Of a stretch of 64,000 nt of DNA, positions 3,665 through 20,244 are shown piece after piece. The translations under genes and the position numbers were made by a program. How positions within the stretch are numbered: the stretch's first letter is position 1; every line of letters begins with the position of its first letter. Origin of the DNA: an uncultured Pseudomonadota bacterium (GTDB taxonomy: Bacteria > Vulcanimicrobiota > Vulcanimicrobiia > Eremiobacterales > Eremiobacteraceae); contig CAVTNB010000001.1 of the NCBI GenBank assembly GCA_963736005.1, forward strand, positions 576,001 to 640,000, in the 5' to 3' direction. The notes below the pieces were generated by a model. That model ran no database searches. It had not been told where the DNA came from and was given only the letters and a program-made list of their open reading frames with translations.

Positions 3665-5791
3665 CTAAGGCACGCGCACGAGCTCGACTCGCCGGTTGAG
3701 CGCTTTGCCCGTCTCCGCCGCATTCGAAGCGATAGGCCGGGTGAGCCCGTATCCCCTGGCCTCCAGTCTCGACGATGCGATCCGGTACTTGCTCACCAAC
3801 TCGTCGACGACTGCCTGTGCGCGCCGCTCGCTCAATTGCAGGTTGTAGGCCGCGCCGCCATCCGAATCGGTATGACCTTCAACGCGCATGCGCCAGAGCG
3901 GATGGATTTGTAAAACGCGAGCGATCTCGAGGATCGTGGCTTCCGACTGCGATTTGATCCGCGCGCTCGCGACGTCGAAGTGTATTCCATAGGTGCGGGC
4001 TCGGCCTCCCTGTTCGAGCTGCTTTGCGATGGACGGCGCGGCGGGTCGAAGCGCCGCAACGATTCGGCGCGGTCCGTTGCGTTCGAGCGCGACGCGCGCC
4101 ATGCATGGCAATGCAGTCTGCGGCGACAGCCCATACTCCGCGCGCGCGATCTGAATGGCCTGCGGAATACGAGCCCCCATGTCGTCAACGTCGAACCCGT
4201 TGTAAATGAGCACGCCTCGACCGAAGCGAGCATATGCATGCACCCACCCGGATACGCCCTTCGCGTTCTTCGCGAAGAGCAGGCCGCACCAGTGTGGATC
4301 ATTCGTCTGCATGATGTCAGCATCGCCGATTTGCTGCGTCTCGATCGCGAGATAGGCTCGCACGTCGAGAAAATGCGCCCGGTCTTTCGGGTCGTTGCTG
4401 CCGAGCACCGAGGAATCAGCGATCTGCAGCTCGTGGCCGCTAGCGCCGCCGGCTCCAGTCGCCGCGGTTCGGAACGGGTAGGGTATGAACGCGTAGTCGG
4501 AGTGGGAGCAGACGTCGGCGTCGCGGATGATCAAGATATGCCCGTTCGCCACGTAGTCGAGAAGCGCTTTCGTCTGTTCCGATGTCAAGTCGGTATTCGC
4601 CGCGCAGTCATTGGCGAGAATTGCCGCATGCGCGCGGTTGAGCGCGGCCGGCGAAAGCCCCGGCAAGAAGAGCGTCTGGTAGTGGAAGCCGGGTGCGACC
4701 TTGGGGTCGGCCTCAGGACCGCCGTTCGTAGGAATCCGCTTGATCACGAGCACTGTGGGTCCGCTGCCGGCGGCGGCCACGTCGCAGGTCGGAGCCGCCC
4801 CGATTCTGCGGGCCACAAACGGCAGTCCGCTAACTGAACCGACCAAGAGCGACCCCTTCGCGACGACGGTCAAGACGTCGCTGCCTCCGAGCGTGGCAGT
4901 GCCGTTCCGGATTGGGCCGTTCCACAGTGGATCTGTGCGCGTGCACGGTCCACCGCTCATCGCGCCGTCGCGCTCGAAGGTGGCGATTTGGGCTCCATCG
5001 GGCTTTAGGTGGTCGTCTGGATTGACGGCGCCGACAGTCGGCGCGAAGATCATGCCGCCATCGCCGTTCGCGTTGTCGGCAAGCGCCCAGCGTCCATTGA
5101 AGGACAAGGACGGCAGCGTCATGCTGCCGGCTGCCGAAATCGATTCGATAATGAGTGTCCCACCGGGCTTGCGGAGAAAAGTGAACCGCACCCATCGTGC
5201 CTGAAGCGGACCGGCGAGGGTGCCGGTCCGCTCGTAACCCGTTGCGGGGAACGTGATCGTTCCCGCACGGCTGAAAGCCAGGCCATTGACGGAGGCATCA
5301 ACGTCGACGTGCGTGTCTGGATCGGTCGCGCCGTACGTCGTGATGTTGATCGCGTCGATGCGAGCGACCGTCGGGAGCTCGAACAATACCTGCGGTGCTG
5401 TTTTGAAGTCGGGGTGGATCGTCCATCCACCGCCTGAAGCCAAGAGCGGAGCACCGCGGTTCGACGCGGCAACACTCCAGCTCTTTACGAAAGCGCCGCG
5501 CACATAGCTCAGCAGATTGCCTGACGGGCTGGCCGATGCAGAGGGCGACGGAACGGGAGCCGGCGCAGAGCTCGTCGGTTGCGATGCGATCGCCACGGGC
5601 GAGGCCTGCTCGCTAGACGTCGCCGGCGATCCGATCCCCTCAGACGATTGGGGACCCTGCGCACTCGGCGAGGTCGATGGTGGAGTGGCGGCGGGCGCTG
5701 AGGTGGCGCCGCTAGAGCTTTGATTGTGGCCGCAGGCTGACACCGTGACCAATGCGGCGAGGCACAGCGACGTGACAATCCTATTCCTCAT
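3665..5791 (-). CDS. Multidomain lipoprotein with C-terminal OmpA peptidoglycan-binding domain
   Basis: Lipobox VSAC; S/P/A linker; discoidin-like region (ARWVRFT); EGHTDSDG...NLQLSERRAQAV...NRRVE. Confidence 0.85.
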   Translation of the reverse strand: MRNRIVTSLCLAALVTVSACGHNQSSSGATSAPAATPPSTSPSAQGPQSSEGIGSPATSSEQASPVAIASQPTSSAPAPVPSPSASASPSGNLLSYVRGAFVKSWSVAASNRGAPLLASGGGWTIHPDFKTAPQVLFELPTVARIDAINITTYGATDPDTHVDVDASVNGLAFSRAGTITFPATGYERTGTLAGPLQARWVRFTFLRKPGGTLIIESISAAGSMTLPSLSFNGRWALADNANGDGGMIFAPTVGAVNPDDHLKPDGAQIATFERDGAMSGGPCTRTDPLWNGPIRNGTATLGGSDVLTVVAKGSLLVGSVSGLPFVARRIGAAPTCDVAAAGSGPTVLVIKRIPTNGGPEADPKVAPGFHYQTLFLPGLSPAALNRAHAAILANDCAANTDLTSEQTKALLDYVANGHILIIRDADVCSHSDYAFIPYPFRTAATGAGGASGHELQIADSSVLGSNDPKDRAHFLDVRAYLAIETQQIGDADIMQTNDPHWCGLLFAKNAKGVSGWVHAYARFGRGVLIYNGFDVDDMGARIPQAIQIARAEYGLSPQTALPCMARVALERNGPRRIVAALRPAAPSIAKQLEQGGRARTYGIHFDVASARIKSQSEATILEIARVLQIHPLWRMRVEGHTDSDGGAAYNLQLSERRAQAVVDELVSKYRIASSRLEARGYGLTRPIASNAAETGKALNRRVELVRVP

Positions 5792-7871: not shown

Positions 7872-8320
7872 TTAGCGACAAGTCCGGTGATTCTGACTGA
7901 GAGAAGCCATGGCGACGGTGGAGAGTGCCGGTTTGAACGCCTCGTAGGTGACTGCGTACACATCGCTCGTGCCCACAGAACCCGTGATGACGACATCCAT
8001 CGTTCCGTCAGGCTTGAAGTAGACGTCTTGCGGGCGATTGTAGCGCATGAAATGATACTTCCCAAAACCTGAAAGGTGCGCGTCGTACCACGACACATAC
8101 GTCGCGTCCTTGCCATGCGGCATGTACATGTTTCCTCGCATTTGCGATCCGCAGTAGACCGCGTCCGGAAGCTTCTCGATGAACGGCGCTCCGGGGTAGA
8201 GCGGCAGACCGGTAAGACTGTCTGTGTCCGCTCCGAGCGCCGGCACCCCAGCGGGAGTCCAGCCGCTATGGCTGCCGCCATGCCAAGAATCATCGAAAAC
8301 CCGCGATGATGTGCTTGCAT
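7872..8320 (-). pseudogene. Secreted hypothetical protein split by a 1-nt frameshift (or sequencing error)
   Basis: Signal peptide MQAHHRGFSMILGMAAAIAAGLPLG is in one frame and VPALGADTDSLTGLPLYPGA in another; one extra G in the G4 run (8246-8249) joins them. Confidence 0.6.
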
Positions 8321-8454
8321 GATAGAAAAGCCTCCTGACCACGCCCGCACCAGGAACAGATGTTCACGTCGTGCCGGACTGATGGTCAGAAGCTTACCGT
8401 GAGGGCGTGCCGCTTTCGTGCCGCCTCGGCGGGTGAGCCTTGGAGCGCAACCTT

Positions 8455-8695
8455 AAGCTATTCTTGGCTTGATCTTCACAACTTTTACGCGCTATGTTTG
8501 GACTCGAACATGGCCTACTCGTGCGCGTATTTTCGGGATGCTTCCGACACGATTGACGAGGCTCAGCTTCAGAAGTGCGATTTGATCTGCCGCAAGTCAC
8601 CCCTCAAACGAGGCGAGCGGTTCTTGGACATCGGTTGCGGTTCGGGCGGCCTCGTGCGCTTCGCCTGCGCGAGTACGGAGTGGAAGCAGTTCTGA
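8455..8695 (+). pseudogene. cfa: Internal fragment of cyclopropane-fatty-acyl-phospholipid synthase
   Basis: NFYALCLDSNMAYSCAYF...DEAQLQKCDLICRK..LKRGERFLDIGCGSGGL; both termini missing. Confidence 0.8.
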
Positions 8696-8824
8696 TACTT
8701 GTGGTTGTGATAATGATCCTACTCGCGGTCACCGGCCACCTCAAACCATAGATCGCGCTTCCAAGACCTTGAGGGTGGCACTTCGGTTCCGCCTTTCGCT
8801 GTTATTCATGGTGCGCGGTCCAGC

Positions 8825-9850
8825 TCAAGGCAAAACCCGGTAGCGTGCTTCCATCCCCGCCATCAGGTGGCTTTGGACGTGGCAATGAAGCAACCAGACG
8901 CCCGGGTTGTCCGGGATCATGTCGGCGACCGCGATCTCGTCGATCTCCACCTGGAAAGCGTCGGTGCGCATCCCATTTTGCAACAACGTCTGGCCGTGCC
9001 AGTGCGGTGCGTGCGCGTCGAACCCGCTGCGCGTGACGATGACGTACCAGCGAGTCCGCTCGCCTTCGCGCACGGTGACCATCGGCATGGTGCCATAGCT
9101 GTAGCCATCGATGGTGAAGAATACGTTGGCGAACTGGAAGTTCGGCGCATGGCTTCCAACGTGTCGCGGATTGAGTTCCGGATCCGCGATGTTCGCACCG
9201 ACGAGGCGGCTCTGGCTCTCGTCCATCATAGCGAAGAGGATGGGCACTTCGCGGTCGACATCCGAGGGAGTTCCGTCGGGCCTCGCTGACCCTCGCCTGG
9301 TCACGATGACCGCTCCGATCATACCGGTGTTTTCGTCCCTATTCTCGGCGACCGGACTGTAGTAGCGCCACGCGATCGAGCTGCCATCGTTCACCCCGGG
9401 GCCCGAGCTCGCCGGAACGTGCCAAACATAGGTGTGCCGCCCGCCCGGTGCCACGACCGAGGATGAGCCCGCCAGCCCCGCAACTGCCATTGCGGCCGGT
9501 AATGGGGAATTGTTCTTGAATCGCACCACGAGCGTGTCTCCCACGACTGCGTGCATGGTCGGACCGAGCAGGCCCTGATAGGCGTCCGAGGCCGGCACCG
9601 GCACGCGCTTGGTGAACGACGCGTCCGTGTACGCTCGATACATGACCTTTCGAAACCGCCATCCCAGCGCGCCTGGGGGTAACGAGGGCAAAGGGCCGCC
9701 TGCAATCTGATCCTGACCGCCCGGTGCGTAATTCCAAACCACCTCATCCGCCGCGATGTAGTACGTGCGGATTGCCGCCTGGGCAGGTGCCGCGTAGATC
9801 AGGGCCGCGCCCAACAGTATCGCGGCAGTGGTTACAGACGCAGCCCTCAC
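8825..9850 (-). CDS. Two-domain multicopper oxidase, chain C (domain-2 ligands intact, domain-1 His lost)
   Basis: GTGA overlap start; signal peptide ending AQA; RTYYIAADE; HAPHWHG and HCHVQSHLMAGM intact; AVAG and YYSP replace HxHG and YHSH. Confidence 0.9.
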   Translation of the reverse strand: MRAASVTTAAILLGAALIYAAPAQAAIRTYYIAADEVVWNYAPGGQDQIAGGPLPSLPPGALGWRFRKVMYRAYTDASFTKRVPVPASDAYQGLLGPTMHAVVGDTLVVRFKNNSPLPAAMAVAGLAGSSSVVAPGGRHTYVWHVPASSGPGVNDGSSIAWRYYSPVAENRDENTGMIGAVIVTRRGSARPDGTPSDVDREVPILFAMMDESQSRLVGANIADPELNPRHVGSHAPNFQFANVFFTIDGYSYGTMPMVTVREGERTRWYVIVTRSGFDAHAPHWHGQTLLQNGMRTDAFQVEIDEIAVADMIPDNPGVWLLHCHVQSHLMAGMEARYRVLP

Positions 9851-10923
9851 GGCCGCACCGTGTAGCGCCCGGTCATGCCCGCGTCGAAGTGTATGTTCAA
9901 GTCGCAATTGAGCATCCATACTCCCGGATTTTCCGGCACCATGTCCGCGACTCTCGTATCGCCCGGACCTAGCGGGAGCGTGTTCGAGCGTTGGCCGTTG
10001 GCGAGCACCGTCTGTCCGTGCCATGTGGGGAAGTGAAAGTCGAAATCGCTCATCGTCGTCATTAGATACCACCTGACTCGCTGGCCTTTTGTCATGGTGA
10101 GCATGGGCAGATTCCCGAATAGGAAGCCGTTGATCGTGAAGAACTGGTTGGCGCCTTGAAACTGCGGTGCTGATGCGGAGATGTGGTGCGGATTGGTCGA
10201 TGCACCTACCAGATTTTCCGATACCAGGCGGCTTTGGCTCTCGTCTATCTCCGAGAACATCGTGACGAACTCGGCATCGATATCCTTGGGTGATCCATCG
10301 GGGCGCGCCATGCCACGCCGCGTGATGATGATCGGGCCCACAGGGCCGGTGTTCAGGTCGCGCACGTCATCGGTGTGCGAATAATACATCCACACGATCG
10401 AACTTGGATCCGCCGGACCGGGCCCCGAGCGCTCCGGCACCGTCCAGGTGTAGGTGTACACGCTGCCGGGGGCAACCGCGCCACCGCGCTTATCCGATCG
10501 CGGAGCGTGGTCGCTATATGGCGCTCCTTCCGACGCTTTGCTGTACTCGACGCCTCCTGGATAGACGCTCAGGTGCAAGCTGGTGTTGTTCTTGAACACT
10601 ACGACGATCGTGTCGCCCACCACAGCGCGGATGATCGGGCCTAGCACGCCGAGGTACGCATCTGCCGGTCCGCGCCTTTTGAGATGACGAAACGTTCTGT
10701 CGGTATACGCACGGTAGAGCGCCTTGTGATAGCTCCAGCCCAGTTGCGGCGGCTCGACTGCGGGCAGTGCGGTGCCCGTGATGAGGTCGCGCCCGCTCGG
10801 TGCGAAGTCCCAGAGCACGTCGTCAGCGGCGATATAGTACGTGCGGACGGCGGCATTGCATGGCACTGCCCCCAACAGAACGATAGCGGCGATCAACGCT
10901 GCTTGTGCGGCGCGGGTGATCAC
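9847..10923 (-). CDS. Two-domain multicopper oxidase, chain B (T1 site only)
   Basis: GTGA overlap start; signal peptide ending CNA; YPGG, YYSH, HFPTWHG, NCDLNIHFDAGM. Confidence 0.9.
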   Translation of the reverse strand: MITRAAQAALIAAIVLLGAVPCNAAVRTYYIAADDVLWDFAPSGRDLITGTALPAVEPPQLGWSYHKALYRAYTDRTFRHLKRRGPADAYLGVLGPIIRAVVGDTIVVVFKNNTSLHLSVYPGGVEYSKASEGAPYSDHAPRSDKRGGAVAPGSVYTYTWTVPERSGPGPADPSSIVWMYYSHTDDVRDLNTGPVGPIIITRRGMARPDGSPKDIDAEFVTMFSEIDESQSRLVSENLVGASTNPHHISASAPQFQGANQFFTINGFLFGNLPMLTMTKGQRVRWYLMTTMSDFDFHFPTWHGQTVLANGQRSNTLPLGPGDTRVADMVPENPGVWMLNCDLNIHFDAGMTGRYTVRP

Positions 10924-12011
10924 GGCAGCACCGTGAAGCGCGCCGTCATGCCAGCCTCGAGATGGACGGCCAGGCTGCAATCGAACAGCCACACGCCGGG
11001 ATTGTCCGGCACCATGTCCGCCACTTTCATATCCATGGGGCCGAGCATGATGGTGTTCGCCCGCTGGCCATCGTACAGCACGGTCTGTCCATGCCAGGTC
11101 GGCGCATGGAAATCGTTATCGTCCATTGACGCGAGCAAATACCAACGGACGCGCTCGCCCCTTTTCATCGTGAGCATGGGAAGGTTTCCATAGTCAAACC
11201 CGTTGATGGTGAGGAACTGGTTGGCTGCCTGTAACTTGGCCGCCGAACCGGTCACGTGTTGCGGATTCGTCACGGGGTCCACGAGATTCGCGTGGAGCAA
11301 ACGGCTCAGGCTTTCGTCCATTTGCGCGAACATCGTGATGAATTCGACATCAACGTCCTTCGGTGATCCGTCGGGGCGCGCCATGCCGCGCCTCGTGACG
11401 ATGATCGGTCCGATCGGGCCGGTGTCCATGTCGCGGGTTTCATTGGTGTGCGAATGGTACATCCAGATGATCGAGCTCGGGTCCATAGGTCCAGGCCCGG
11501 AGCGCTCCGGCACCATCCACGTATAGGTATGTCTACCACCAGGTGGCACGGCGTCATCCCACTTGTCAGCGTGCGACGTTTCATCGCGATACAACGCACC
11601 CTCCGACGCTTTGTCGTACTTCATGCCGTGCGCGTGCAGACTCAAGTGCAGCCGCGTGTTGTTCTTGAACACCGCGATGATCGTATCGCCAACCTCGGCA
11701 CGGATCACGGGTCCGAGCAAACCGAGATATGCGTCCCGGGGTGCTCGCGCCTTGAGGTGGCGAAAGCTCGCGTCCGTGTACTCCCGATAGATCGCTTTGT
11801 GGTAGATCCAACCCAGCTGCAACGGTTGTCGCGGCGGCAGCGCCTTGCCCGCGACGAGGTCCTGCCGGCTCGGCGCGAAGTTCCACAGCACCTCGTCAGC
11901 TGCGATGTAGTACGTGCGTACGGCTGCCTGGGCGGCTGTCGCACTCGCTACCAGTAGGCCGGCGGCGATCGCAGCCATTCCCAGCGCCATTGTCATGCTC
12001 CAGCGTCTCAC
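10920..12011 (-). CDS. Two-domain multicopper oxidase, chain A (domain-1 His intact, domain 2 T1 only)
   Basis: GGAGG SD then GTG at 12011; signal peptide ending AQA; HAHG and YHSH intact; HAPTWHG and DCSLAVHLEAGM. Confidence 0.9.
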   Translation of the reverse strand: MRRWSMTMALGMAAIAAGLLVASATAAQAAVRTYYIAADEVLWNFAPSRQDLVAGKALPPRQPLQLGWIYHKAIYREYTDASFRHLKARAPRDAYLGLLGPVIRAEVGDTIIAVFKNNTRLHLSLHAHGMKYDKASEGALYRDETSHADKWDDAVPPGGRHTYTWMVPERSGPGPMDPSSIIWMYHSHTNETRDMDTGPIGPIIVTRRGMARPDGSPKDVDVEFITMFAQMDESLSRLLHANLVDPVTNPQHVTGSAAKLQAANQFLTINGFDYGNLPMLTMKRGERVRWYLLASMDDNDFHAPTWHGQTVLYDGQRANTIMLGPMDMKVADMVPDNPGVWLFDCSLAVHLEAGMTARFTVLP

Positions 12012-12259
12012 AACCGGTTCCTCCCCGTGCGGAAAAGCTATCTGGAACAAGGATAGCACCCCGCCGTGCGACCCGCGTGCGGACCTGCGGAGCTAGGGTA
12101 GAGATACGGAAATGCCTTGCGGCCGCCGGATCAAGATTTGCCGGAAATGTGCCACAAACGCCATCTTTCGCATTCCCAGCGCGACGGCAAACTCCAGGCA
12201 AGACGCGCATAGCCTTAATCCCGGACTGAGGTGGGCCGTCTCATCCGGCTCGGATGTCC

Positions 12260-12460
12260 TCACAGCGATCCCTTTCGTGACGAGCCGGTACCCATTTGAA
12301 GCCTGATGAAGTCCGCGACCTCACCCGCACTGCCGACAAAAAGCCGTCGCCCGGAAGACACGTGCTGTACCGACCCACGGAGTTGCGTGGTTTCAGTCCC
12401 ATGCTCAAGCCACATCCGCACCAGGAACACGTGCTCATTGCGCCCGTCGTCGCTGCTCAA
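12260..12460 (-). CDS. Small hypothetical protein (66 aa)
   Basis: GGAG SD then TTG at 12460; FLVRMWLE...RGSVQHVSSGRRLF...VADFI. Confidence 0.65.
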   Translation of the reverse strand: MSSDDGRNEHVFLVRMWLEHGTETTQLRGSVQHVSSGRRLFVGSAGEVADFIRLQMGTGSSRKGSL

Positions 12461-12480
12461 ACAGATTCTCCGGTCGGCTG

Positions 12481-15400
12481 CTACCGCTTCTTGCGCCGTC
12501 GAACCTGAGTATAGCGCACGGGCGCGCCGTGGGCGTACGCGGGCCATTCTCCCCGGTCGCCCGCGGCGACGATTTCACGGTTAAGGGGGAGCGCGAAAAA
12601 CGCGGCTCGCGTCTTGGCGTCCGCCACCCTATTGGCGAAGTTCTGCATGGTCGTCACCGCGTTCTGAAGATGGAGCTTCGCTTGCGCCTTATCGGCGTTA
12701 GCCTGGCAGACGATCGCCGCTGCCCAATAGCAATAGTGTGGCCAGAAGGCGCCATCCGCGCTCTTGCCGGCGATTTTCAGCAAAGTATCTGCGGTCGCCC
12801 GGGCCTTGACTAGGTCGCCCGTCTGGACGTAGCACACCGCAAGGTCGCAATAGTCGTCCAGTAGGTCCGTCGGCTCGAGCACAGCTTGGCGCAGCGCGAG
12901 TCCCTGCTCCAGGTGCCGCACGCCGGCGTTCACCTGGCCGCTCATGCGTTCGGCATTGCCGAGATTTGCAAGCGCTGCCCCCTCGAAAAGTGGGAACTTG
13001 ACCTCCCGCGCGATCTGGAGAGCCTCGGTCGCGAGTCGCACTGCGCCGTCGGTATCGCCTTGCAGTAAACGATTGAGACTCATATTGACTTTGGTCACCG
13101 CGAGAGGGCGACGGTCACCCGTCCGTTCCGTGATTTCGAGGACGCGAGCGCCCAACTGATCCGCCTCTTGGAGCAGCCCGAGCCGCAACGCGAGCACAAA
13201 ATGGTTGGCCACCACGTGTGAGGTGCCGCGCAGGTTGCCGATGGACTGCATTGCCTCCGCAGCCTGCGCAAATAACCCGCGTGCCGCCTCGAAGTCTGAT
13301 TGAAACGTCGCGATGGTCGCGAGACGCTGCAATGCGTGTGCTTCTTCTTCTCGGTCGCCGATCGAGCGGCTCAGCGCAAGGTCCTCATGCGCGAGCTCGG
13401 CTGCATCGCCGATACGGTGTTGCTGCAACGCCGCGATCGTGGCAGTCGAGATCGCGCGCAGGATCAAGGTCTTGGCGGGGTGCTCGGCAGTCCGGCTCCG
13501 TAAGGTCGCAAGCAATTGTCGTGACTGCTCGCCATGACCCGCGGCGGTTGCGATTTCGACGAGCATGGCGAGCGTCTCGACCTGGCCGTCGTTGTCGCCG
13601 AGGTTTTGATACAGCTCGAGCGCCGCCTTCGCCGGCTTTTCGGCCTGTGCATGACTCGTCAACCAGACGAGGTGTTCCGCCCTCGCAAAGAGTGCCTTCG
13701 CGCGCCGGTGCGGATCGCTGCTGACCGCTGCCCGGCGTTCGAGCTCTTCGACCGCGCTAGCCTGCTTTTCGCGATCGCCCAGGCTCCGCTGCAGTTGCAG
13801 CGTGCGCAGCAACGTCTGCCAAGAAAGTTCGTCATCACCGTTTTGTTCGCTCAGCGCGCGAAGGACCTCGATGTCAGCGGCTTGCGCTTCACGCTCCCCG
13901 AGCTTTCCAAAGGCCTGCTCTCGCAGCAGCAACGCCTGCGACCGCGTTTGGTCGTTGTTCGCCAAAGCGAGAGCTTTGGTCGCGTGTGCGATCGCTTCGT
14001 GGTTTGCGAACAACGCAGCGGCGTGAGCTGCCGCAGCGAGATACTGCGTAGCCGCCCGCGCCCCGTCGCCGCCACGCTCCCAGTGCAGCGCACGATCCGC
14101 CGCGGCGAATCCGCCTGCGTCCGAGGGTTGCGCTTCGAGCAATTGCGCGATGCGGCGATGCCGGCGCGTGCGCAACGGTTGAGCCACCATTTCATAGATG
14201 GCCTCTTGGATGAGATGGTGGGTGAATGCGTAGTCGTAGCGCCGCCGTACCCCTGCCTCGCGCACGAGGTGCCGGTCCATCAACTCGTTGACGCCGTCGA
14301 GAATCGCGGCCTCGCTCGCACCCGCGACCTCGCGGATAAGGTCGACGTCAAAGCCGTGGCCCACGATCGCAGCTACCTGCGCTATCTCGCGACCTTCCTC
14401 GCTCAGCGATGCGAGGCGCGCAGCGATCGTCGCGTGTAGGATGTCGCCGCTTGTCCGACGTGCGTCACCGCGAGCCGGCCCTCCCTCGACTTCACGCACG
14501 ACGTCGCGCAGCGCCTCGGTGAGAAAAAGCGGATTGCCTTCGCTGCGTTCAAACCCAAGCCGCGCCATTTCCGGACCCTTGCCGGCCGGGATCGGCATCC
14601 GTTCGACGATGTCAATGACGTCCGCCTGCGACAGCCGCTTGAGCGTGAGCGTGTTCGCCAATTGTTCGCCGCGCAGTTCTTGCAGCACCGCACGCAGGGG
14701 ATGCGCCCGGCCTGCCTCTTCTTCTCGATAGGTGCCCACCAAGAGCACTGCGCTCTTGGCAAGCCGGCGCGCGAGAAAGGCGATCGCTGCGAGCGTGTCG
14801 GCTCCAGCCCAGTGCAGATCTTCGAAGATCATTAAGAGCGGACGCGGCAACGCCATGGCGGAGATAGCCGATGCCGCTGCGTCGAGCAAGCGGGCCTGCT
14901 CTCGGCTTGGATCGACTGAGGGTATTTCCGGCAGGTCCGCTCTCCGGATGGCCAAATCGGGGATGAGCTGGGCGATGATCGCCAGTCGCAGCGGGTCGAG
15001 ATTGAGAGTCGCCACGTACGGCAGGCTGTAACGCAGCGCTTCAACGATGCATTCATACGGGAAACGCTCGGGGCAGGTGGTCACGCCGACACAGACTCGT
15101 CCCCCTTCGGACTCGACCGATCGGGCGAGCTCCGCCACGAGGCGCGACTTGCCGATGCCGGCTTCGCCCGCGACGAACATGAGGCTGCCGTTGCCCCGTG
15201 CGGACCGCATCCAGAGCGCGCGCAGTTGCTCGAGTTCGCCGTGGCGGCCGGCGAAGGGCAGGCCCTCGTTTGCCTCCCGAGCCGCGGAACCCTCAGGCAT
15301 CGCACCCGAGCCAAGCGACGCCGGCAGCGGCGCATTGCGCACGATCGCGTCGCGAACGACGAGCGTTTCCGGCATCGGCTCCACGCCAAGTTCCGCTTTC

Positions 15401-16050
15401 AATCGCTTCGCAAACACCTCGAATGTCGCAATCGCCCCGGCGGCATCGCCCGACTCGTAATGACACGCCATGGTCAGGCGCACGATATCTTCGCGCCATG
15501 GGTCTGCAGCGAGCAATCGCGCGGCGTACTCCAACGCGCGGGCGAACTTGCGGTCGTCACGATAACGCGCGATGAGCGTGCTTAGGTCGGTGAAATAGAG
15601 CGCGCGTAATCGCTCGCGATACGAGACGACCCAGTCGTCGTAGCTGTCTGCCAAGAGATCGCCGGCATATACGTCGACCGCCTCCGCGCAGGTACCCGGA
15701 TCGGCGCTGAGCCGTTCGAAGTCTGCAACGTCAAGCCGCATGGCGTCATCGACGTGCCAGCGCAGCATGTCACCGTCGGCGCGTATCCATGGCTCGCCGG
15801 ACGGCGTCGGCGGGAGCGTCTTATTCAGCAGATACACGTAGCGGCGGAGTTCGGCCAGGGCGACCTCTTCGGTCGCATCCGCCCACAAAGTGAACGCGAG
15901 CGTGTTCCGCGAGATCTGTTGCTCGCGATGCAGGAGGAGATATGCGGCCAGCGGTATGGTCGCAGCGCGTTTCGGCAACTTGATGGTCGCGCCCGCTGAC
16001 GCGATTTGCGGATGACCCAGCAGGCGGATATCGAGTTTCGCCTCGTCCAT
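12481..16050 (-). CDS. SARP/BTAD-family transcriptional regulator with AAA ATPase and TPR domains
   Basis: IRLLG wHTH start; BTAD (DPWRED...LGVEPMPET); Walker A GEAGIGKS; FEDLHWA; SEGNPLFL; FTHHLIQEAIY; TPR tail. Confidence 0.9.
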   Translation of the reverse strand: MDEAKLDIRLLGHPQIASAGATIKLPKRAATIPLAAYLLLHREQQISRNTLAFTLWADATEEVALAELRRYVYLLNKTLPPTPSGEPWIRADGDMLRWHVDDAMRLDVADFERLSADPGTCAEAVDVYAGDLLADSYDDWVVSYRERLRALYFTDLSTLIARYRDDRKFARALEYAARLLAADPWREDIVRLTMACHYESGDAAGAIATFEVFAKRLKAELGVEPMPETLVVRDAIVRNAPLPASLGSGAMPEGSAAREANEGLPFAGRHGELEQLRALWMRSARGNGSLMFVAGEAGIGKSRLVAELARSVESEGGRVCVGVTTCPERFPYECIVEALRYSLPYVATLNLDPLRLAIIAQLIPDLAIRRADLPEIPSVDPSREQARLLDAAASAISAMALPRPLLMIFEDLHWAGADTLAAIAFLARRLAKSAVLLVGTYREEEAGRAHPLRAVLQELRGEQLANTLTLKRLSQADVIDIVERMPIPAGKGPEMARLGFERSEGNPLFLTEALRDVVREVEGGPARGDARRTSGDILHATIAARLASLSEEGREIAQVAAIVGHGFDVDLIREVAGASEAAILDGVNELMDRHLVREAGVRRRYDYAFTHHLIQEAIYEMVAQPLRTRRHRRIAQLLEAQPSDAGGFAAADRALHWERGGDGARAATQYLAAAAHAAALFANHEAIAHATKALALANNDQTRSQALLLREQAFGKLGEREAQAADIEVLRALSEQNGDDELSWQTLLRTLQLQRSLGDREKQASAVEELERRAAVSSDPHRRAKALFARAEHLVWLTSHAQAEKPAKAALELYQNLGDNDGQVETLAMLVEIATAAGHGEQSRQLLATLRSRTAEHPAKTLILRAISTATIAALQQHRIGDAAELAHEDLALSRSIGDREEEAHALQRLATIATFQSDFEAARGLFAQAAEAMQSIGNLRGTSHVVANHFVLALRLGLLQEADQLGARVLEITERTGDRRPLAVTKVNMSLNRLLQGDTDGAVRLATEALQIAREVKFPLFEGAALANLGNAERMSGQVNAGVRHLEQGLALRQAVLEPTDLLDDYCDLAVCYVQTGDLVKARATADTLLKIAGKSADGAFWPHYCYWAAAIVCQANADKAQAKLHLQNAVTTMQNFANRVADAKTRAAFFALPLNREIVAAGDRGEWPAYAHGAPVRYTQVRRRKKR

Positions 16051-16462
16051 CAGCGCTGTCCGCAACGATTCTTCGGACGCCAGCCCGACATGGCTGACCA
16101 CGGAACGCTGGGATCGTGCACGACGATGAAGAGCGCATCCCGCCGGTCTGGCCCGAGTATGTCAGCCGCATCGGGGTGCCCATAGGCTCGAACATAGAAT
16201 GCTTCGCTGATATCATCTTCACTCCGCGCTGCGTTTCGACGCACTGAGCGCCACTCACAAGGTACCACGCGTCCGGCCCCGGGTGCACGTGCACACGGGT
16301 GATGCCGTTGAAGCCAACCCCTTCTCCGACGAGCAATTCGAGCGGTCTGCAGGTCGGCAATGGCAATGCACCAACTTCAGCAACAAACTTCGCACCTGAG
16401 AGTGCCCACTCTTGCGTCCAAGGGTCATCAGGAGGATCCGCTTGTCTCCAATAGCACCGCAT
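16050..16462 (-). pseudogene. Cupin-domain protein, truncated and frameshifted
   Basis: HVHPGPDAWYLVSGAQCVET...GTPMRL continues in another frame near 16160 as RRDALFIVVHDPSVPW. Confidence 0.6.
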
Positions 16463-16518: not shown

Positions 16519-18828
16519 TTACTGTCGCGAATCGGGAATGCAGACAAAAGATCCTAAGTTTGGAATGGTCATGGTGTTCTTCGGAATATTTACCTGGAAA
16601 TGACATGGTCCGGCAGAGCTTTGGGCCGAAAGTGAAAGCGTGCTGCCCGCTCTCACCCCGCCCAAATAAAGCTCGCCGTCTTCTCCAACGGGCCACGAGC
16701 TCTGTCCGTCCGAAGTGTGCACGATCGCGCCGGTACCCAAAGGCAGCCCGTCGCTACCCGTCACCGTCAGTACCACCCCACCGGCGGGTTTAACGGGGAA
16801 GACGGCCGTGACAGGGCTCCCATAATATGGCACCGCAGTGATCTGAGGCTCGCCGATATTTTCTGCGACCGGCAAATCTGACGATTCAACCCGGATGTAA
16901 TTGGTCTGATAAGGCTGCAGCGATGCAGCCAGGAGTCGACCCCGGGAGTCCGTGCGGCCCTCATTTTCGCCATTCACGTAGACGTGAACGTCGGGGTAAC
17001 CTGGGAGCTCTACGAGCGCGTAACTGTTGTCTATGCGCGGCGCGAGATACCATCCGTTGTCGACGTTCACCATTGAACCGGTTGCATCGACAGAGTAGGC
17101 CGTGCCGCCGCCGTTATTGCTGACCTCGGTGTCGATGACTCCTGTTCGGCCCCATTGCTCGATGTTGGCGTCAAAGCCCGCGCTTGATCCGGATTGCGCA
17201 AGTAAACGATACGCAAAGCCTTCGTTCGGTTGCGGCGTCCGTTCGCTAATATCAATGCTCTGTGATGCGTGGCTTTTGTCGACGGTCGCCTCCGAGATGA
17301 GCGAGCCGCGTCGGCCGAGAGCCACCGAATAGAGCAACGTGGCATCGATCGCATGCGCCGTTTGGTCGTCCAGCGCGATGAAACTCAATTGGCCGGAAGC
17401 GACGCTTCTGGACAAATTGAAGCTAGCTATTTCGTCTGTTTGTTGACCGGGGCGTGATCGCTCCACAATTCCTAGGCCGAGCGTGGTGCGTCGCCCGAGA
17501 GCGAGGCCAACATTGCCGCTTATTTGCTGCGTCCATTCGGTGCAAGTGAGGATGCACCCAACGGTGCTGAAACCTTTCGAGGCCTCGGCGATCTGCGCGC
17601 CGATGGAAATGCCCCGGTCGCTCTGCTGGTACCCGAAGCTCAACTTCCCGCCCGCAGTCTGACCAGTGCTTTCCGCTGCCCCAAGGGCCAAAACTCCAAT
17701 ATCGTCCAACCCCCAGTTCCCTGCAAGGGAAGCCATTGTTAATCGACCCTGCGTTTCGAGATGCGCCTCACCCGTGAAGCTTTCGGAAAATCCGTGGCGC
17801 CAGGTGCCGTCCATGAGAAACTGTCCGTAGGTGCCGGACGTTAATCCGTAATCTTCACGCGGAAAACCAGCAGAATACGAGAAGGCGCTGAGACCGCTTT
17901 TGAGGAGGGAATTAGACGCGTAGAACGAGCTTGTCAAATGTCGCTCATTTCCCAAAATGTCCTTCACCGTGACTTGAATTTGACCTTGACCGGTCACCAC
18001 GGGTAGATTTGCTATGTCCACCGGTCCCGGCTGCACCTGGCTGCTGTACTCTTTAATGCCGTTCACGTAGATGTCTACGAGCGACGGCAATGTTGCGGCA
18101 AGCGACAGCTGCGGCGTGGGGAACGTGATAAAACCGGGATCTGTAGAAAAGTTTGATTCCCACGTGATGCCGGCGAAGCGTACAGGTAATCCTAGCTGGC
18201 TCATCCCCGTCACGGCATCGCCCAGGAACCACGTCGCGCGGTCCGCGAGATCATCATGCCGAAGCGTGGTTGAGAGCCGTACGATCCCGTGCGATTGAAG
18301 AGCGCCTGCCTGGTAATCAAATGACTGCGTCAGGACCATTCCGTTAGCGGCGTAGTTGGCGTCAAAGATGCCGGCAGATGCGAACGATCGAGCTGCGCCA
18401 AACATATGCACATCATAATTCAGAAATCCCCCTGTGCCTCGCTCTGGAGGAGCGGCCCGCGTCCGTCGAGCGTCGACCGTGGTGGGTGCAAACGCTGCAG
18501 CACTCGCGTCGATGTTCAAGACTTGGTTCGGCTCGTCAAATGAGACGTGATCAATATGAAGAGATCCATCAAGCGGCACATACACGTTGCCGCGGTGCGT
18601 GATGCGGCGGGAAATCGGGACTGTAAGGCGCCAGGACCGCACCTCCGAAAGGGCCGCCCAGTAGGTATCGTCTTGTTTTAGAATGACACTCCCTTGCGAA
18701 ACAGCAACGCCGTTCAGCACGACCCCACAGAGAATTTCGCGATAGGTTTGATCAGGCCACGCTGGAAGCGCTGCGATGCCCAGCCAAACAAGTAATGCTG
18801 CGCAGAAAAAGGCGCAGCGCCTGGTCAT
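16519..18828 (-). CDS. Fimbrial outer-membrane usher (Csu/sigma clade)
   Basis: Signal peptide; GFLNYD; PSLVDIYVNG...PGPVDIANLPVVTGQGQIQVTVKDILG; LLKSGLSAFSYSAG. Confidence 0.9.
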   Translation of the reverse strand: MTRRCAFFCAALLVWLGIAALPAWPDQTYREILCGVVLNGVAVSQGSVILKQDDTYWAALSEVRSWRLTVPISRRITHRGNVYVPLDGSLHIDHVSFDEPNQVLNIDASAAAFAPTTVDARRTRAAPPERGTGGFLNYDVHMFGAARSFASAGIFDANYAANGMVLTQSFDYQAGALQSHGIVRLSTTLRHDDLADRATWFLGDAVTGMSQLGLPVRFAGITWESNFSTDPGFITFPTPQLSLAATLPSLVDIYVNGIKEYSSQVQPGPVDIANLPVVTGQGQIQVTVKDILGNERHLTSSFYASNSLLKSGLSAFSYSAGFPREDYGLTSGTYGQFLMDGTWRHGFSESFTGEAHLETQGRLTMASLAGNWGLDDIGVLALGAAESTGQTAGGKLSFGYQQSDRGISIGAQIAEASKGFSTVGCILTCTEWTQQISGNVGLALGRRTTLGLGIVERSRPGQQTDEIASFNLSRSVASGQLSFIALDDQTAHAIDATLLYSVALGRRGSLISEATVDKSHASQSIDISERTPQPNEGFAYRLLAQSGSSAGFDANIEQWGRTGVIDTEVSNNGGGTAYSVDATGSMVNVDNGWYLAPRIDNSYALVELPGYPDVHVYVNGENEGRTDSRGRLLAASLQPYQTNYIRVESSDLPVAENIGEPQITAVPYYGSPVTAVFPVKPAGGVVLTVTGSDGLPLGTGAIVHTSDGQSSWPVGEDGELYLGGVRAGSTLSLSAQSSAGPCHFQVNIPKNTMTIPNLGSFVCIPDSRQ

Positions 18829-18830
18829 AC

Positions 18831-19559
18831 CTACCGCCCGGCAGGTATGAGCGGCACCTGCACGACGCCGTCATCCGTATGCAGTTCAACCGCTAAATCG
18901 AAGAGCTCGTTCGGCACGGCAAACTTTATTGGGAATGCTCTCGTCTCGTGGGCCAACACGTAAGAGGCCAGCGTGCCTGCAAACAGGATATGGCCGGTGC
19001 CCGCTTGCTTGATCCAGAGCTGGCTGACCTGGGCATGGATGTTGCCAGCGTTCGCTATTGTGAGCAAACCCCGATTTCGACCGGATCCTGCAAGCGAACA
19101 CGAGAGCAAAGGATGTCCTGCGGCTGACGGCTGGAGGAAGACCGGAAGCGCAAATTCCATCTGGAATGCGATGCCCATCCGTGCCTTAACCGGCGCGTTG
19201 AGCTGCTTGATGAACACCCGGTAGGTTCGTTCCGTGCTTGCGTCCGGCATAATGCGCGAACCGATGCGAAGCACTTGGCGCGCGCCGGGCTGCAGTGAGA
19301 ATATAAGGGGCGAGACAATGAGATCGTCCGTGGGTGATAGCACGTCTTTGCCGTTCTGCTGCGTCCACCGGGAAACGTGTATTTGGAAAAGGTCTATTGC
19401 GACATCGTTGTTTGTGAGTTCGACCGTTTGAATCGGCTGACGTGCGGATATCTGAAGTCGTGGGGGCGTCACTTCGATACCCCCCAAATTAGCGCCGGCA
19501 GCAAGCAAAGGTAAGAAGGACGCGGCAAAACAAAACGCGGCCAAGATACCTTTCTTCAT
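18831..19559 (-). CDS. Periplasmic fimbrial chaperone (PapD/CsuC-like)
   Basis: WTQQNGKDVL...LIVSPLIFSLQPGARQVLRIG...ERTYRVFI...LPVF; NAGNIHA. Confidence 0.9.
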   Translation of the reverse strand: MKKGILAAFCFAASFLPLLAAGANLGGIEVTPPRLQISARQPIQTVELTNNDVAIDLFQIHVSRWTQQNGKDVLSPTDDLIVSPLIFSLQPGARQVLRIGSRIMPDASTERTYRVFIKQLNAPVKARMGIAFQMEFALPVFLQPSAAGHPLLSCSLAGSGRNRGLLTIANAGNIHAQVSQLWIKQAGTGHILFAGTLASYVLAHETRAFPIKFAVPNELFDLAVELHTDDGVVQVPLIPAGR

Positions 19560-19590
19560 TGCGGTGGATCCAAGATCGAGCTGGTTTATG

Positions 19591-20121
19591 CTAGAAGGAC
19601 ACCGTGATGACGACCTTGTCCTGGTAAGTGCCAGCTGGTGTCGTAGTGGTGATTGCACCGACTGGTACATCGCCGAATATGGTGAACGGATCCGGATTAC
19701 CGTCACCGACGGCCGTTTCAGCTGAACCCCCGGCTCCAACCATGCCCGAGCCCCAAACAGTTGTGAAACCTGGATCCTGAAAGAGGTTGTAGGCGATCAA
19801 GACGTCTCCGCCCGAGCCCCCGTTCCAAAGATTCCTAGTGGAGAAACCGGGACCGGGGTTGCCTCCGGTGCTAAGGTCAACCGAATAGGGAATATTCTGG
19901 TTACACATGACGTAAAACGTCATCTGTGCCGGGATATCGCTCGACTGATTGTACAGGTAGTTGGAAGTCCCGAAATCAAGCAACGCGGGATTTTTGACTA
20001 TAGCGCACGCGTTCGTGACATTCAGCGTAGCCAAAAAAGTGTCGCTCGTTGAGTCGGCTCGGGCTACTACCGGAGCCACAAAGCACAACGCGATTGCTGT
20101 TATAAAAAAGAACCTTTTCAT
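19591..20121 (-). CDS. Csu-type fimbrial major subunit (spore coat U domain)
   Basis: Signal peptide; VTNAC...LDFG...C...YNLFQD....VWG...GTYQDKVVITVSF. Confidence 0.9.
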   Translation of the reverse strand: MKRFFFITAIALCFVAPVVARADSTSDTFLATLNVTNACAIVKNPALLDFGTSNYLYNQSSDIPAQMTFYVMCNQNIPYSVDLSTGGNPGPGFSTRNLWNGGSGGDVLIAYNLFQDPGFTTVWGSGMVGAGGSAETAVGDGNPDPFTIFGDVPVGAITTTTPAGTYQDKVVITVSF

Positions 20122-20244
20122 TGGAGAAGCTCCTTGAGCTGGAGCACTCTCGTACTCCCTGCTATACGTTAGTTCGGTCAGCTCAATGGAACATCGCAGC
20201 GGCACTGTTGGTATTGCCGCTCTGGCTATGAATCGTAAATGACT

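Follow-up and report, generated by a model that had tools for sequence, protein, structure and literature searches.

The 64,000-nucleotide stretch of contig CAVTNB010000001.1 analyzed here (the window) contains three head-to-tail open reading frames (ORFs) with separate stops, all on the minus strand, which we denote genes A, B, and C. Each encodes a secreted two-domain chain of the multicopper oxidase (MCO) type, and the histidines required for one trinuclear copper cluster (TNC) are divided among the three chains (Table 1). The sequence CCGTGA was found at both junctions, where the TGA stop of the upstream gene shares letters with the GTG start of the next, and we infer translational coupling at the A/B overlap. 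All three N-termini consist of a short polar part, a hydrophobic core, and an A-x-A-like end, followed by the conserved A[VI]RTYYIAAD. These signal peptides were called by eye from the sequence, and signal-peptide-like stretches are also present in the orthologues of A, B, and C. They are read as Sec-type because the RR of A is not conserved. Tat export of A, whose chain starts with VRRW, was considered and rejected, as the RR is absent from the orthologue in genome G103. The ORFs, the DNA at the junctions, and the N-termini thus bear out the initial annotation of three genes with their own signal peptides, joined by GTGA overlaps.

Pfam domains Cu-oxidase_3 (N-terminal) and Cu-oxidase_2 (C-terminal) were detected in this order in all three chains, with 33.8 and 62.8 bits in A, 29.1 and 40.7 bits in B, and 23.4 and 48.8 bits in C, all above the curated cut-offs of 21 and 20.4 bits, respectively. 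Pairwise identity is 65% between A and B and 53% between A and C, and a loop in domain 1 of C is shortened by 18 residues.

We then analyzed the copper ligands. The motifs are HAHG, YHSH, HAPTWH, and DCSLAVHLEAGM in A; YPGG, YYSH, HFPTWH, and NCDLNIHFDAGM in B; and AVAG, YYSP, HAPHWH, and HCHVQSHLMAGM in C. The type 1 (T1) copper ligands, His and Cys-x4-His-x4-Met, were found by alignment in domain 2 of every chain. A complete two-domain MCO carries all eight TNC His (HxH, HxH, HxxHxH, HCH) in one chain, as does a paralogue in the same genome, denoted D (8/8). Chain A has 4/4 of these in domain 1 and 1/4 in domain 2 (5/8 in total), B has 1/4 in each domain (2/8), and C has 0/4 in domain 1 and 4/4 in domain 2 (4/8). 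Motifs and T1 sites were exactly as the initial annotation had described them.

Because each chain lacks part of the eight TNC His, a homotrimer of A, B, or C cannot, judged by its ligands, build the cluster, as had been claimed: the interfaces would offer 5 His in AAA, 2 in BBB, and 4 in CCC. All eight are obtained only by pairing domain 1 of A with domain 2 of C. In a ring of the order A-B-C this interface has 8/8 His, that of B domain 1 with A domain 2 has 2, and that of C domain 1 with B domain 2 has 1, while the reverse ring order gives 5, 1, and 5.

Table 1 Features of the A-B-C array, its surroundings, and related loci. Positions refer to the window unless a locus or genome is named.
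Feature	Position	Strand	Details
Gene A	10920..12011	-	Secreted two-domain MCO, 363 aa from GTG at 12011; alternative start ATG at 11996
Gene B	9847..10923	-	Secreted two-domain chain, 358 aa
Gene C	8825..9850	-	Secreted two-domain chain, 341 aa
A stop/B start overlap	10920..10923	-	GTGA; DNA at junction
B stop/C start overlap	9847..9850	-	GTGA; DNA at junction
Signal peptide A	11925..12011	-	Residues 1-29, ...ATAAQA before AVRTYY; by eye
Signal peptide B	10852..10923	-	Residues 1-24, ...VPCNA before AVRTYY; by eye
Signal peptide C	9776..9850	-	Residues 1-25, ...APAQA before AIRTYY; by eye
A motif sites	11625-11636; 11448-11459; 11091-11108; 10947-10982	-	HAHG; YHSH; HAPTWH; DCS...H...M
B motif sites	10552-10563; 10375-10386; 10018-10035; 9874-9909	-	YPGG; YYSH; HFPTWH; NCD...H...M
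C motif sites	9476-9487; 9353-9364; 8996-9013; 8852-8887	-	AVAG; YYSP; HAPHWH; HCH...H...M
Candidate regulator	12481..16101	-	BTAD + AAA_16 + TPR (MalT-like), upstream of A; Pfam scan
TPR/MalT-like genes of the other two arrays	L035:5842-7374; L037:5955-7997		Upstream of A; both partial at stretch end
Probable CMAS remnant	8360-8695	+	111-residue ORF
Chaperone-usher pilus cluster	16519-20205	-	Usher/PapC, PapD, SCPU-domain subunit
OmpA-domain protein	3665-5791
Paralogue D	G000:C1:661292-662386 (L003 1495-2709)	-	About 21 kb past the window end
Complete + null two-gene arrays	L036, L040-L046		Family-f1 genomes
Complete + null two-gene arrays	L139-L148, L159		Metagenome, 11 loci

Conservation and relatives of the array

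Gene C was used as a query against 401 genomes of the phylum and matched in 98 of them, including the window's own genome and two genomes flagged as unpublished (G233 and G276), which were set aside from further analysis. Among the 401 genomes, tandem arrays were confined to one family (f1), which is apparently Eremiobacteraceae. The closest database proteins carry the names Candidatus Eremiobacter antarcticus and Eremiobacteraceae, which assigns the window to the Eremiobacterota. The search for three-gene arrays of the same pattern, which the initial annotation had proposed, uncovered the A-B-C triple in two genomes beside the window's own, G155 from the same genus and G103 from another (3 of 30 family-f1 genomes, two genera).

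The three genes overlap or abut their neighbours in all three arrays. The His residues of A domain 1 and C domain 2 are invariant in 3/3 arrays, and the lost ligand positions vary: the B motif is YPGG in two of the arrays but HPYG in the third, and the C motif is YYSP in two but YHCP in the third. Pairwise ratios of nonsynonymous to synonymous substitutions (dN/dS; three pairs per gene) ranged over 0.070-0.087 in A, 0.091-0.133 in B, and 0.099-0.117 in C, with dS of 0.4-1.6. On these ratios all three genes are under purifying selection and none is decaying. The orthologous arrays therefore show neither the random ligand loss nor the relaxed selection that had been raised as a point against a functional partition. 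Since the partition is repeated in two orthologous arrays at this distance, and in further C-type and A-type or A'-type proteins, we judge that it is not due to chance.

To place these chains, we typed the ligands of their relatives. Of 124 chains around A (120 matches plus A, B, C, and D), 99 were complete, 20 were A-type or A'-type including A, four were B-like including B, and one was C. One of the 20 A-like chains, P0054, retains HCH, and its sole loss is the middle His of HxxHxH. Retrieval with C added 56 new proteins, comprising 23 C-type, 10 null-type, and 23 complete chains. HxPHWH, HCH, and the short loop were found in 23/23 further C-type protein clusters, with very varied domain-1 motifs, and T1 was intact in 10/10 null-type clusters. 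A representative-library search with C was headed by multi-repeat eukaryotic proteins and was used for typing only. At E <= 1e-20 the bacterial ceruloplasmin-like family comprised 6354 proteins.

Several of these chains are encoded side by side. A complete chain followed by a T1-only null chain with a short loop was found in eight arrays from six family-f1 genomes, and a ring of complete and null chains (E2F-type) would hold a single cluster. Four-gene arrays of A'-type, C'-type, complete, and null chains, in that order, were identified in G300 (L038) and G166 (L039), with HAPDWH and NCD in the A'-type chains, and pieces of a similar four-gene set lie on short contigs of G380. Complementary A' and C' genes are thus neighbours, independently of the triple, in G300 and G166, and also in the metagenome locus L137. 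The latter, an A' + C' pair, was one of 80 metagenome loci retrieved with A'-type chains, some of which may represent one region sampled more than once. Two oxidase ORFs were present in 14 of these loci, 11 of them complete + null. Locus L150 has a 7-His chain and a truncated chain without domain 1, L136 has an A' chain and, where the contig breaks off, the initial 50 residues of a second oxidase, and the remaining two A'-bearing contigs stop too early to type the neighbour.

A further 80 loci from named genomes extend the family to Gemmatimonadota, Acidobacteriota, Actinomycetota, Chloroflexota, and one Nitrososphaera metagenome-assembled genome (MAG). In these, 78 of 86 ORFs were complete and pairs were found in five loci, one of them, in a Gemmatimonadaceae MAG, made up of a C-like chain with the long loop and an adjoining complete chain; the underlying scan used peptide patterns requiring HSH, which favours complete chains, so that these figures map the family and not the C-types. 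In L066 and L089, both from Gemmatimonadaceae MAGs, a chain with HPQG and YRSD in domain 1, a long loop, and a full domain 2 adjoins a complete chain, so that a similar partition may have begun separately in a second phylum. Paralogue D of the window's genome is 404 aa long as its longest ORF and has HCHVSDH as in the third repeat of the animal proteins described below.

Two six-domain proteins were also recorded. The metagenomic protein P0124 (1048 aa) is a natural fused form of the bacterial lineage. Its first repeat is ligand-free and has also lost the T1 Cys, the second is C-type with a short loop, and the third is A-type, so that a single cluster is predicted between domains 4 and 5. At the joint of the first two repeats the chain end ...YRVLP is kept and followed by a short linker, as expected from gene fusion. 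A search of the 401 phylum genomes with P0124 found the fused form in none at E <= 1e-150, an empty result that shows little. The second protein, P0237 (1275 aa), has three units with 3+4, 4+4, and 4+4 cluster His and all T1 ligands, which brings it near the three-cluster six-domain oxidase hypothesised as an ancestor.

A heterotrimeric model and its alternatives

The best reading of the array, and in our judgement probably the correct one, is a heterotrimer of A, B, and C that holds three T1 sites and a single TNC. Each chain would reach the periplasm on its own, and the three would then join in a pseudo-threefold A-B-C ring, built like the trimer of two-domain MCOs and like the three repeats of ceruloplasmin, with each domain 1 facing the domain 2 of its neighbour. 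Such a ring would contain three T1 copper sites, one per domain 2, and a single trinuclear O2-reducing cluster to which A domain 1 and C domain 2 contribute four His each, amounting to six coppers in all. The T1 site of C would be wired directly to the cluster through HCH, since only in C is the T1 Cys flanked by cluster His. The T1 sites of A and B would be extra electron entry or storage sites relaying to that of C.

Several observations weigh against this reading. The exact three-gene form was found in three genomes only. The ligand counts do not need B, as A2C or AC2 would also give one cluster, and the complete chain D could in principle fill a ring position. The domain-wise divergence, which is weak evidence, fits the prediction in part only: domain 1 of A is near the complete chains (0.638 versus a baseline of 0.664), as predicted, and its domain 2 has diverged (0.507 versus 0.606), but domain 2 of C (0.498) has diverged as much as its domain 1 (0.542), contrary to prediction. 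The tree described below comes from a "quick" search with a single measure of branch support. A complex prediction for mature A and B with C as the partner gave scores of 0.10 and 0.25 (mark 0.32), which, obtained without controls, speak neither for nor against binding.

A wider claim, that pseudo-symmetric heterotrimeric MCOs are a real and diversified class in Eremiobacterota, built as two-, three-, and four-gene sets of A-type, C-type, T1-only, and complete chains, is one we put forward tentatively and lean somewhat against.

In the first alternative, the working heteromer consists of A and C, as A2C, AC2, or mixed rings that might also include D, and B is optional or a separate T1-only protein, such as a blue-copper electron carrier. 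The ligand arithmetic is satisfied by A domain 1 and C domain 2 alone, A' + C' pairs occur without an adjoining B-type chain (L137 and genes 1-2 of the four-gene arrays), and T1-only null chains often partner complete chains. However, B is flanked in the window by A and C and overlaps both at its start and stop, is present in 3/3 arrays at a dN/dS of 0.09-0.13, and keeps its signal peptide and T1 ligands. We consider this alternative unlikely.

The second alternative is that each chain is homotrimeric and none is a four-electron oxidase, the products being T1 electron-transfer or copper-binding proteins or having partial interface sites for other chemistry. Nitrite reductase, for comparison, uses a type-2 site. 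All three chains keep T1 and the AAA interface still offers five His, both of which would suit homotrimers. This view leaves unexplained the invariance of exactly complementary 4+4 His in 3/3 arrays, the retention of the ligands in 23/23 C-type clusters while other positions drift, and the adjacency of A-type and C-type genes, and it appears quite improbable.

The third alternative concerns ceruloplasmin. The initial annotation had proposed that an A-B-C ring would reproduce the ceruloplasmin architecture in matching gene order, as a pre-fusion intermediate or a fission product. We typed the repeats (R1, R2, and R3) of 16 six-domain proteins, ten of them animal or animal-like (ceruloplasmin, hephaestin, HEPHL1, and three unnamed look-alikes). 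Animal R1 is A-type (HPHG, YHSH, and a domain 2 without HCH), R2 is nearly ligand-free, and R3 is C-type (HTVHFH, HCH). The proposed architecture and order thus agree at the level of ligands, and for the assembly itself they remain a model. In phmmer comparisons B scored best with R2 (254 versus 206 and 201 bits) and C with R3 (186 versus 141 and 154 bits), and the domain-1 loop is short in both C and vertebrate R3 (8-13 residues in the latter). On these grounds A, B, and C could be taken as orthologues of R1, R2, and R3, and the array as the direct unfused ancestor or a fission product of eukaryotic ceruloplasmin.

We constructed a phylogenetic tree of 92 two-domain units (IQ-TREE quick search, LG+C20 with posterior mean site frequencies, support by the Shimodaira-Hasegawa-like approximate likelihood ratio test, SH-aLRT), which was kept small by including 11 of the 16 six-domain proteins and omitting loci L045 and L047. 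The animal R1, R2, and R3 units all fell into a single clade (SH-aLRT 99), and the bacterial units all fell into a second (98), with paralogue D basal in the latter. The A and B orthologues were sister groups (99) nested in the A'-type clade (97). C was sister to the C' chains of the four-gene arrays (98), and C and C' grouped with the short-loop null chains (84). The three repeats of P0124 formed a clade of their own (98). The approximately unbiased (AU) test rejected the grouping of C with animal R3 (log-likelihood difference 205, p-AU 5e-66) and that of B with animal R2 (229, p-AU 1.6e-51); both constraints represent the hypothesis of the initial annotation and were fixed ahead of tree building.

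Given these rejections, the phmmer preferences of B for R2 and of C for R3 reflect convergence. The loop of cnidarian R3 is still long (22-24 residues), so the deletion in vertebrate R3 is independent of that in C. With animal and bacterial units in separate clades and A and B as sisters, a direct ancestor or fission product of ceruloplasmin is very improbable, and the evolutionary part of the initial proposal did not hold. On this phylogeny the likeness of the array to ceruloplasmin is parallel evolution, the design having been reached independently.

Finally, that the ligand losses are decay, with B and perhaps A or C being redundant paralogues on the way to pseudogenes, might be suspected from the lost ligand His and the complete paralogue D in the genome, but is hardly credible given the intact frames, the dN/dS of 0.07-0.13 at dS up to 1.6, and the T1 ligands and signal peptides retained in all orthologues.

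For the A-B-C heterotrimer, the tree suggests an order of events from complete chains through A' + C' to A, B, and C. A complete homotrimeric chain would have come first, followed by a complementary A' and C' pair with one cluster as A'2C' or A'C'2. A' would then have been duplicated into A and B, and B, in the middle of the ring, would have lost domain-1 His that had no use there. Among the animal repeats, R1 and R2 grouped apart from R3 (SH-aLRT 92), which repeats the (A,B),C branching of the bacterial genes with weaker support. Because of this branching, an A2C-like heteromer may have been a step in the history of ceruloplasmin itself. The green-algal repeats differ in that the null unit grouped with the C-type one, on long branches.

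If the heterotrimeric reading is true, the array would be a natural case of a homomer becoming an obligate heteromer through the complementary loss of active-site residues. The wider claim of a diversified class would, if true, mean that the ceruloplasmin design, with one O2-reducing cluster and three T1 sites, comes about when paralogous subunits divide the ligands between them, ahead of gene fusion and with no need for it. The locus would represent a living, unfused system whose clusters are already reduced to one, with intermediate stages in related genomes (complete chains, complementary pairs, and triples) and a fused form in the metagenome. Whether asymmetry precedes fusion, and why one cluster with three T1 sites is repeatedly favoured, could now be tested at the bench. 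The array also opens a large bacterial ceruloplasmin-like family.

Gene neighbourhood and function

A gene upstream of A in the window encodes a BTAD/AAA/TPR protein, and homologous TPR/MalT-like genes were found upstream of A in 3/3 arrays. It is the sole neighbour common to all three and, because of this conserved position, a candidate regulator of the array. A chaperone-usher pilus cluster lies directly upstream of this gene and, together with an OmpA-domain protein elsewhere in the window, fits a cell with an outer membrane and periplasm. Beyond gene C, a short ORF matches positions 19-82 of the 273 of the cyclopropane-fatty-acid synthase (CMAS) profile and is probably a truncated CMAS remnant. 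On the corresponding side of the array in G155, the CMAS gene is much longer. A promoter and terminator scan of 8300-12600 gave one site of each kind, with no excess over shuffles. Among sequencing runs, no RNA data set matched, and nine DNA runs, mostly soil metagenomes, matched at most 0.23 of the words and were uninformative on expression or habitat.

The suggestion of a periplasmic ferroxidase found no support. Pfam scans of 51 neighbouring ORFs, from the window and nine related loci, detected no iron permease (FTR1/EfeU type) and no copper chaperone. Ferroxidases have acidic residues near T1 that hold Fe(II), an Asp directly preceding the T1 His being one example. This position is occupied by V in chain A, I in chain B, and S in chain C, and by D in both paralogue D and animal R3. 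The names "manganese oxidase" and "hephaestin" on database relatives are automatic labels.

Comparison with known oxidases

Among solved structures, the best relatives of A, B, and C were ceruloplasmins (best E-values 1e-186, 2e-199, and 6e-147, respectively), then factor V and factor VIII, and the matches included no member of the bacterial family. All three ceruloplasmin repeats align with every chain over its full length, at 141-254 bits per repeat. Small laccases of the SLAC type match in domain 1 only (E ~1e-13).

The homotrimeric two-domain MCOs of the SLAC type, the class labelled "type B", likewise have two cupredoxin domains with T1 in domain 2 and a cluster expected at the subunit interface. 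Paralogue D and 99 of the 124 typed chains fit this kind, whereas A, B, and C do not. Nakamura and Go reportedly divided two-domain MCOs into types A, B, and C and proposed them as ancestral to ceruloplasmin.

That the TNCs of two-domain MCOs form at subunit interfaces is stated in the available passages of PMC11761707. The same passages describe the two-domain MCO Nmar_1354 from an ammonia-oxidising archaeon, whose crystal form is given as an "alpha-alpha-alpha-prime heterotrimer", the only two-domain MCO called heterotrimeric in the literature searched. That trimer is the product of a single gene, and its chains are distinguished only by a missing pendant domain, with no partition of ligands among paralogues as in A, B, and C. 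The available passages of PMC7036934 and PMC5158116 contain nothing on heteromers. A ligand-partitioned heterotrimeric two-domain MCO, which the initial annotation had allowed might already be known, was not described in the literature searched, with supplements and most subscription journals outside its scope.

The closest parallel is with ceruloplasmin and hephaestin, whose R1/R2/R3 ligand pattern equals that of A/B/C unit for unit, with T1 in the even domains. Ceruloplasmin, hephaestin, and HEPHL1 are 35-42% identical to B. Ceruloplasmin, however, is one six-domain chain of 1050 residues, whereas the array encodes three separate secreted chains; the units are not orthologous, and here the axial Met is kept in all three T1 sites. 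According to the available passages of Vasin 2013 (PMC3600357), which covers only chains of more than 800 residues, the ceruloplasmin cluster sits between domains 1 and 6, and the six-domain chain arose by triplication of a two-domain oxidase and at first had three clusters, two of which were later lost. In those passages a cluster between domains 4 and 5, as predicted for P0124, was undescribed as of 2013. The green-algal Fox1-type six-domain ferroxidases have one predicted cluster per three units, and both they and P0124 cycle through A-type, null, and C-type units as the array does, read as C-A-null in the algal proteins and null-C-A in P0124. These proteins are fused chains, each derived from a triplication of its own, whereas in the A-B-C array the same order is spread over three genes.

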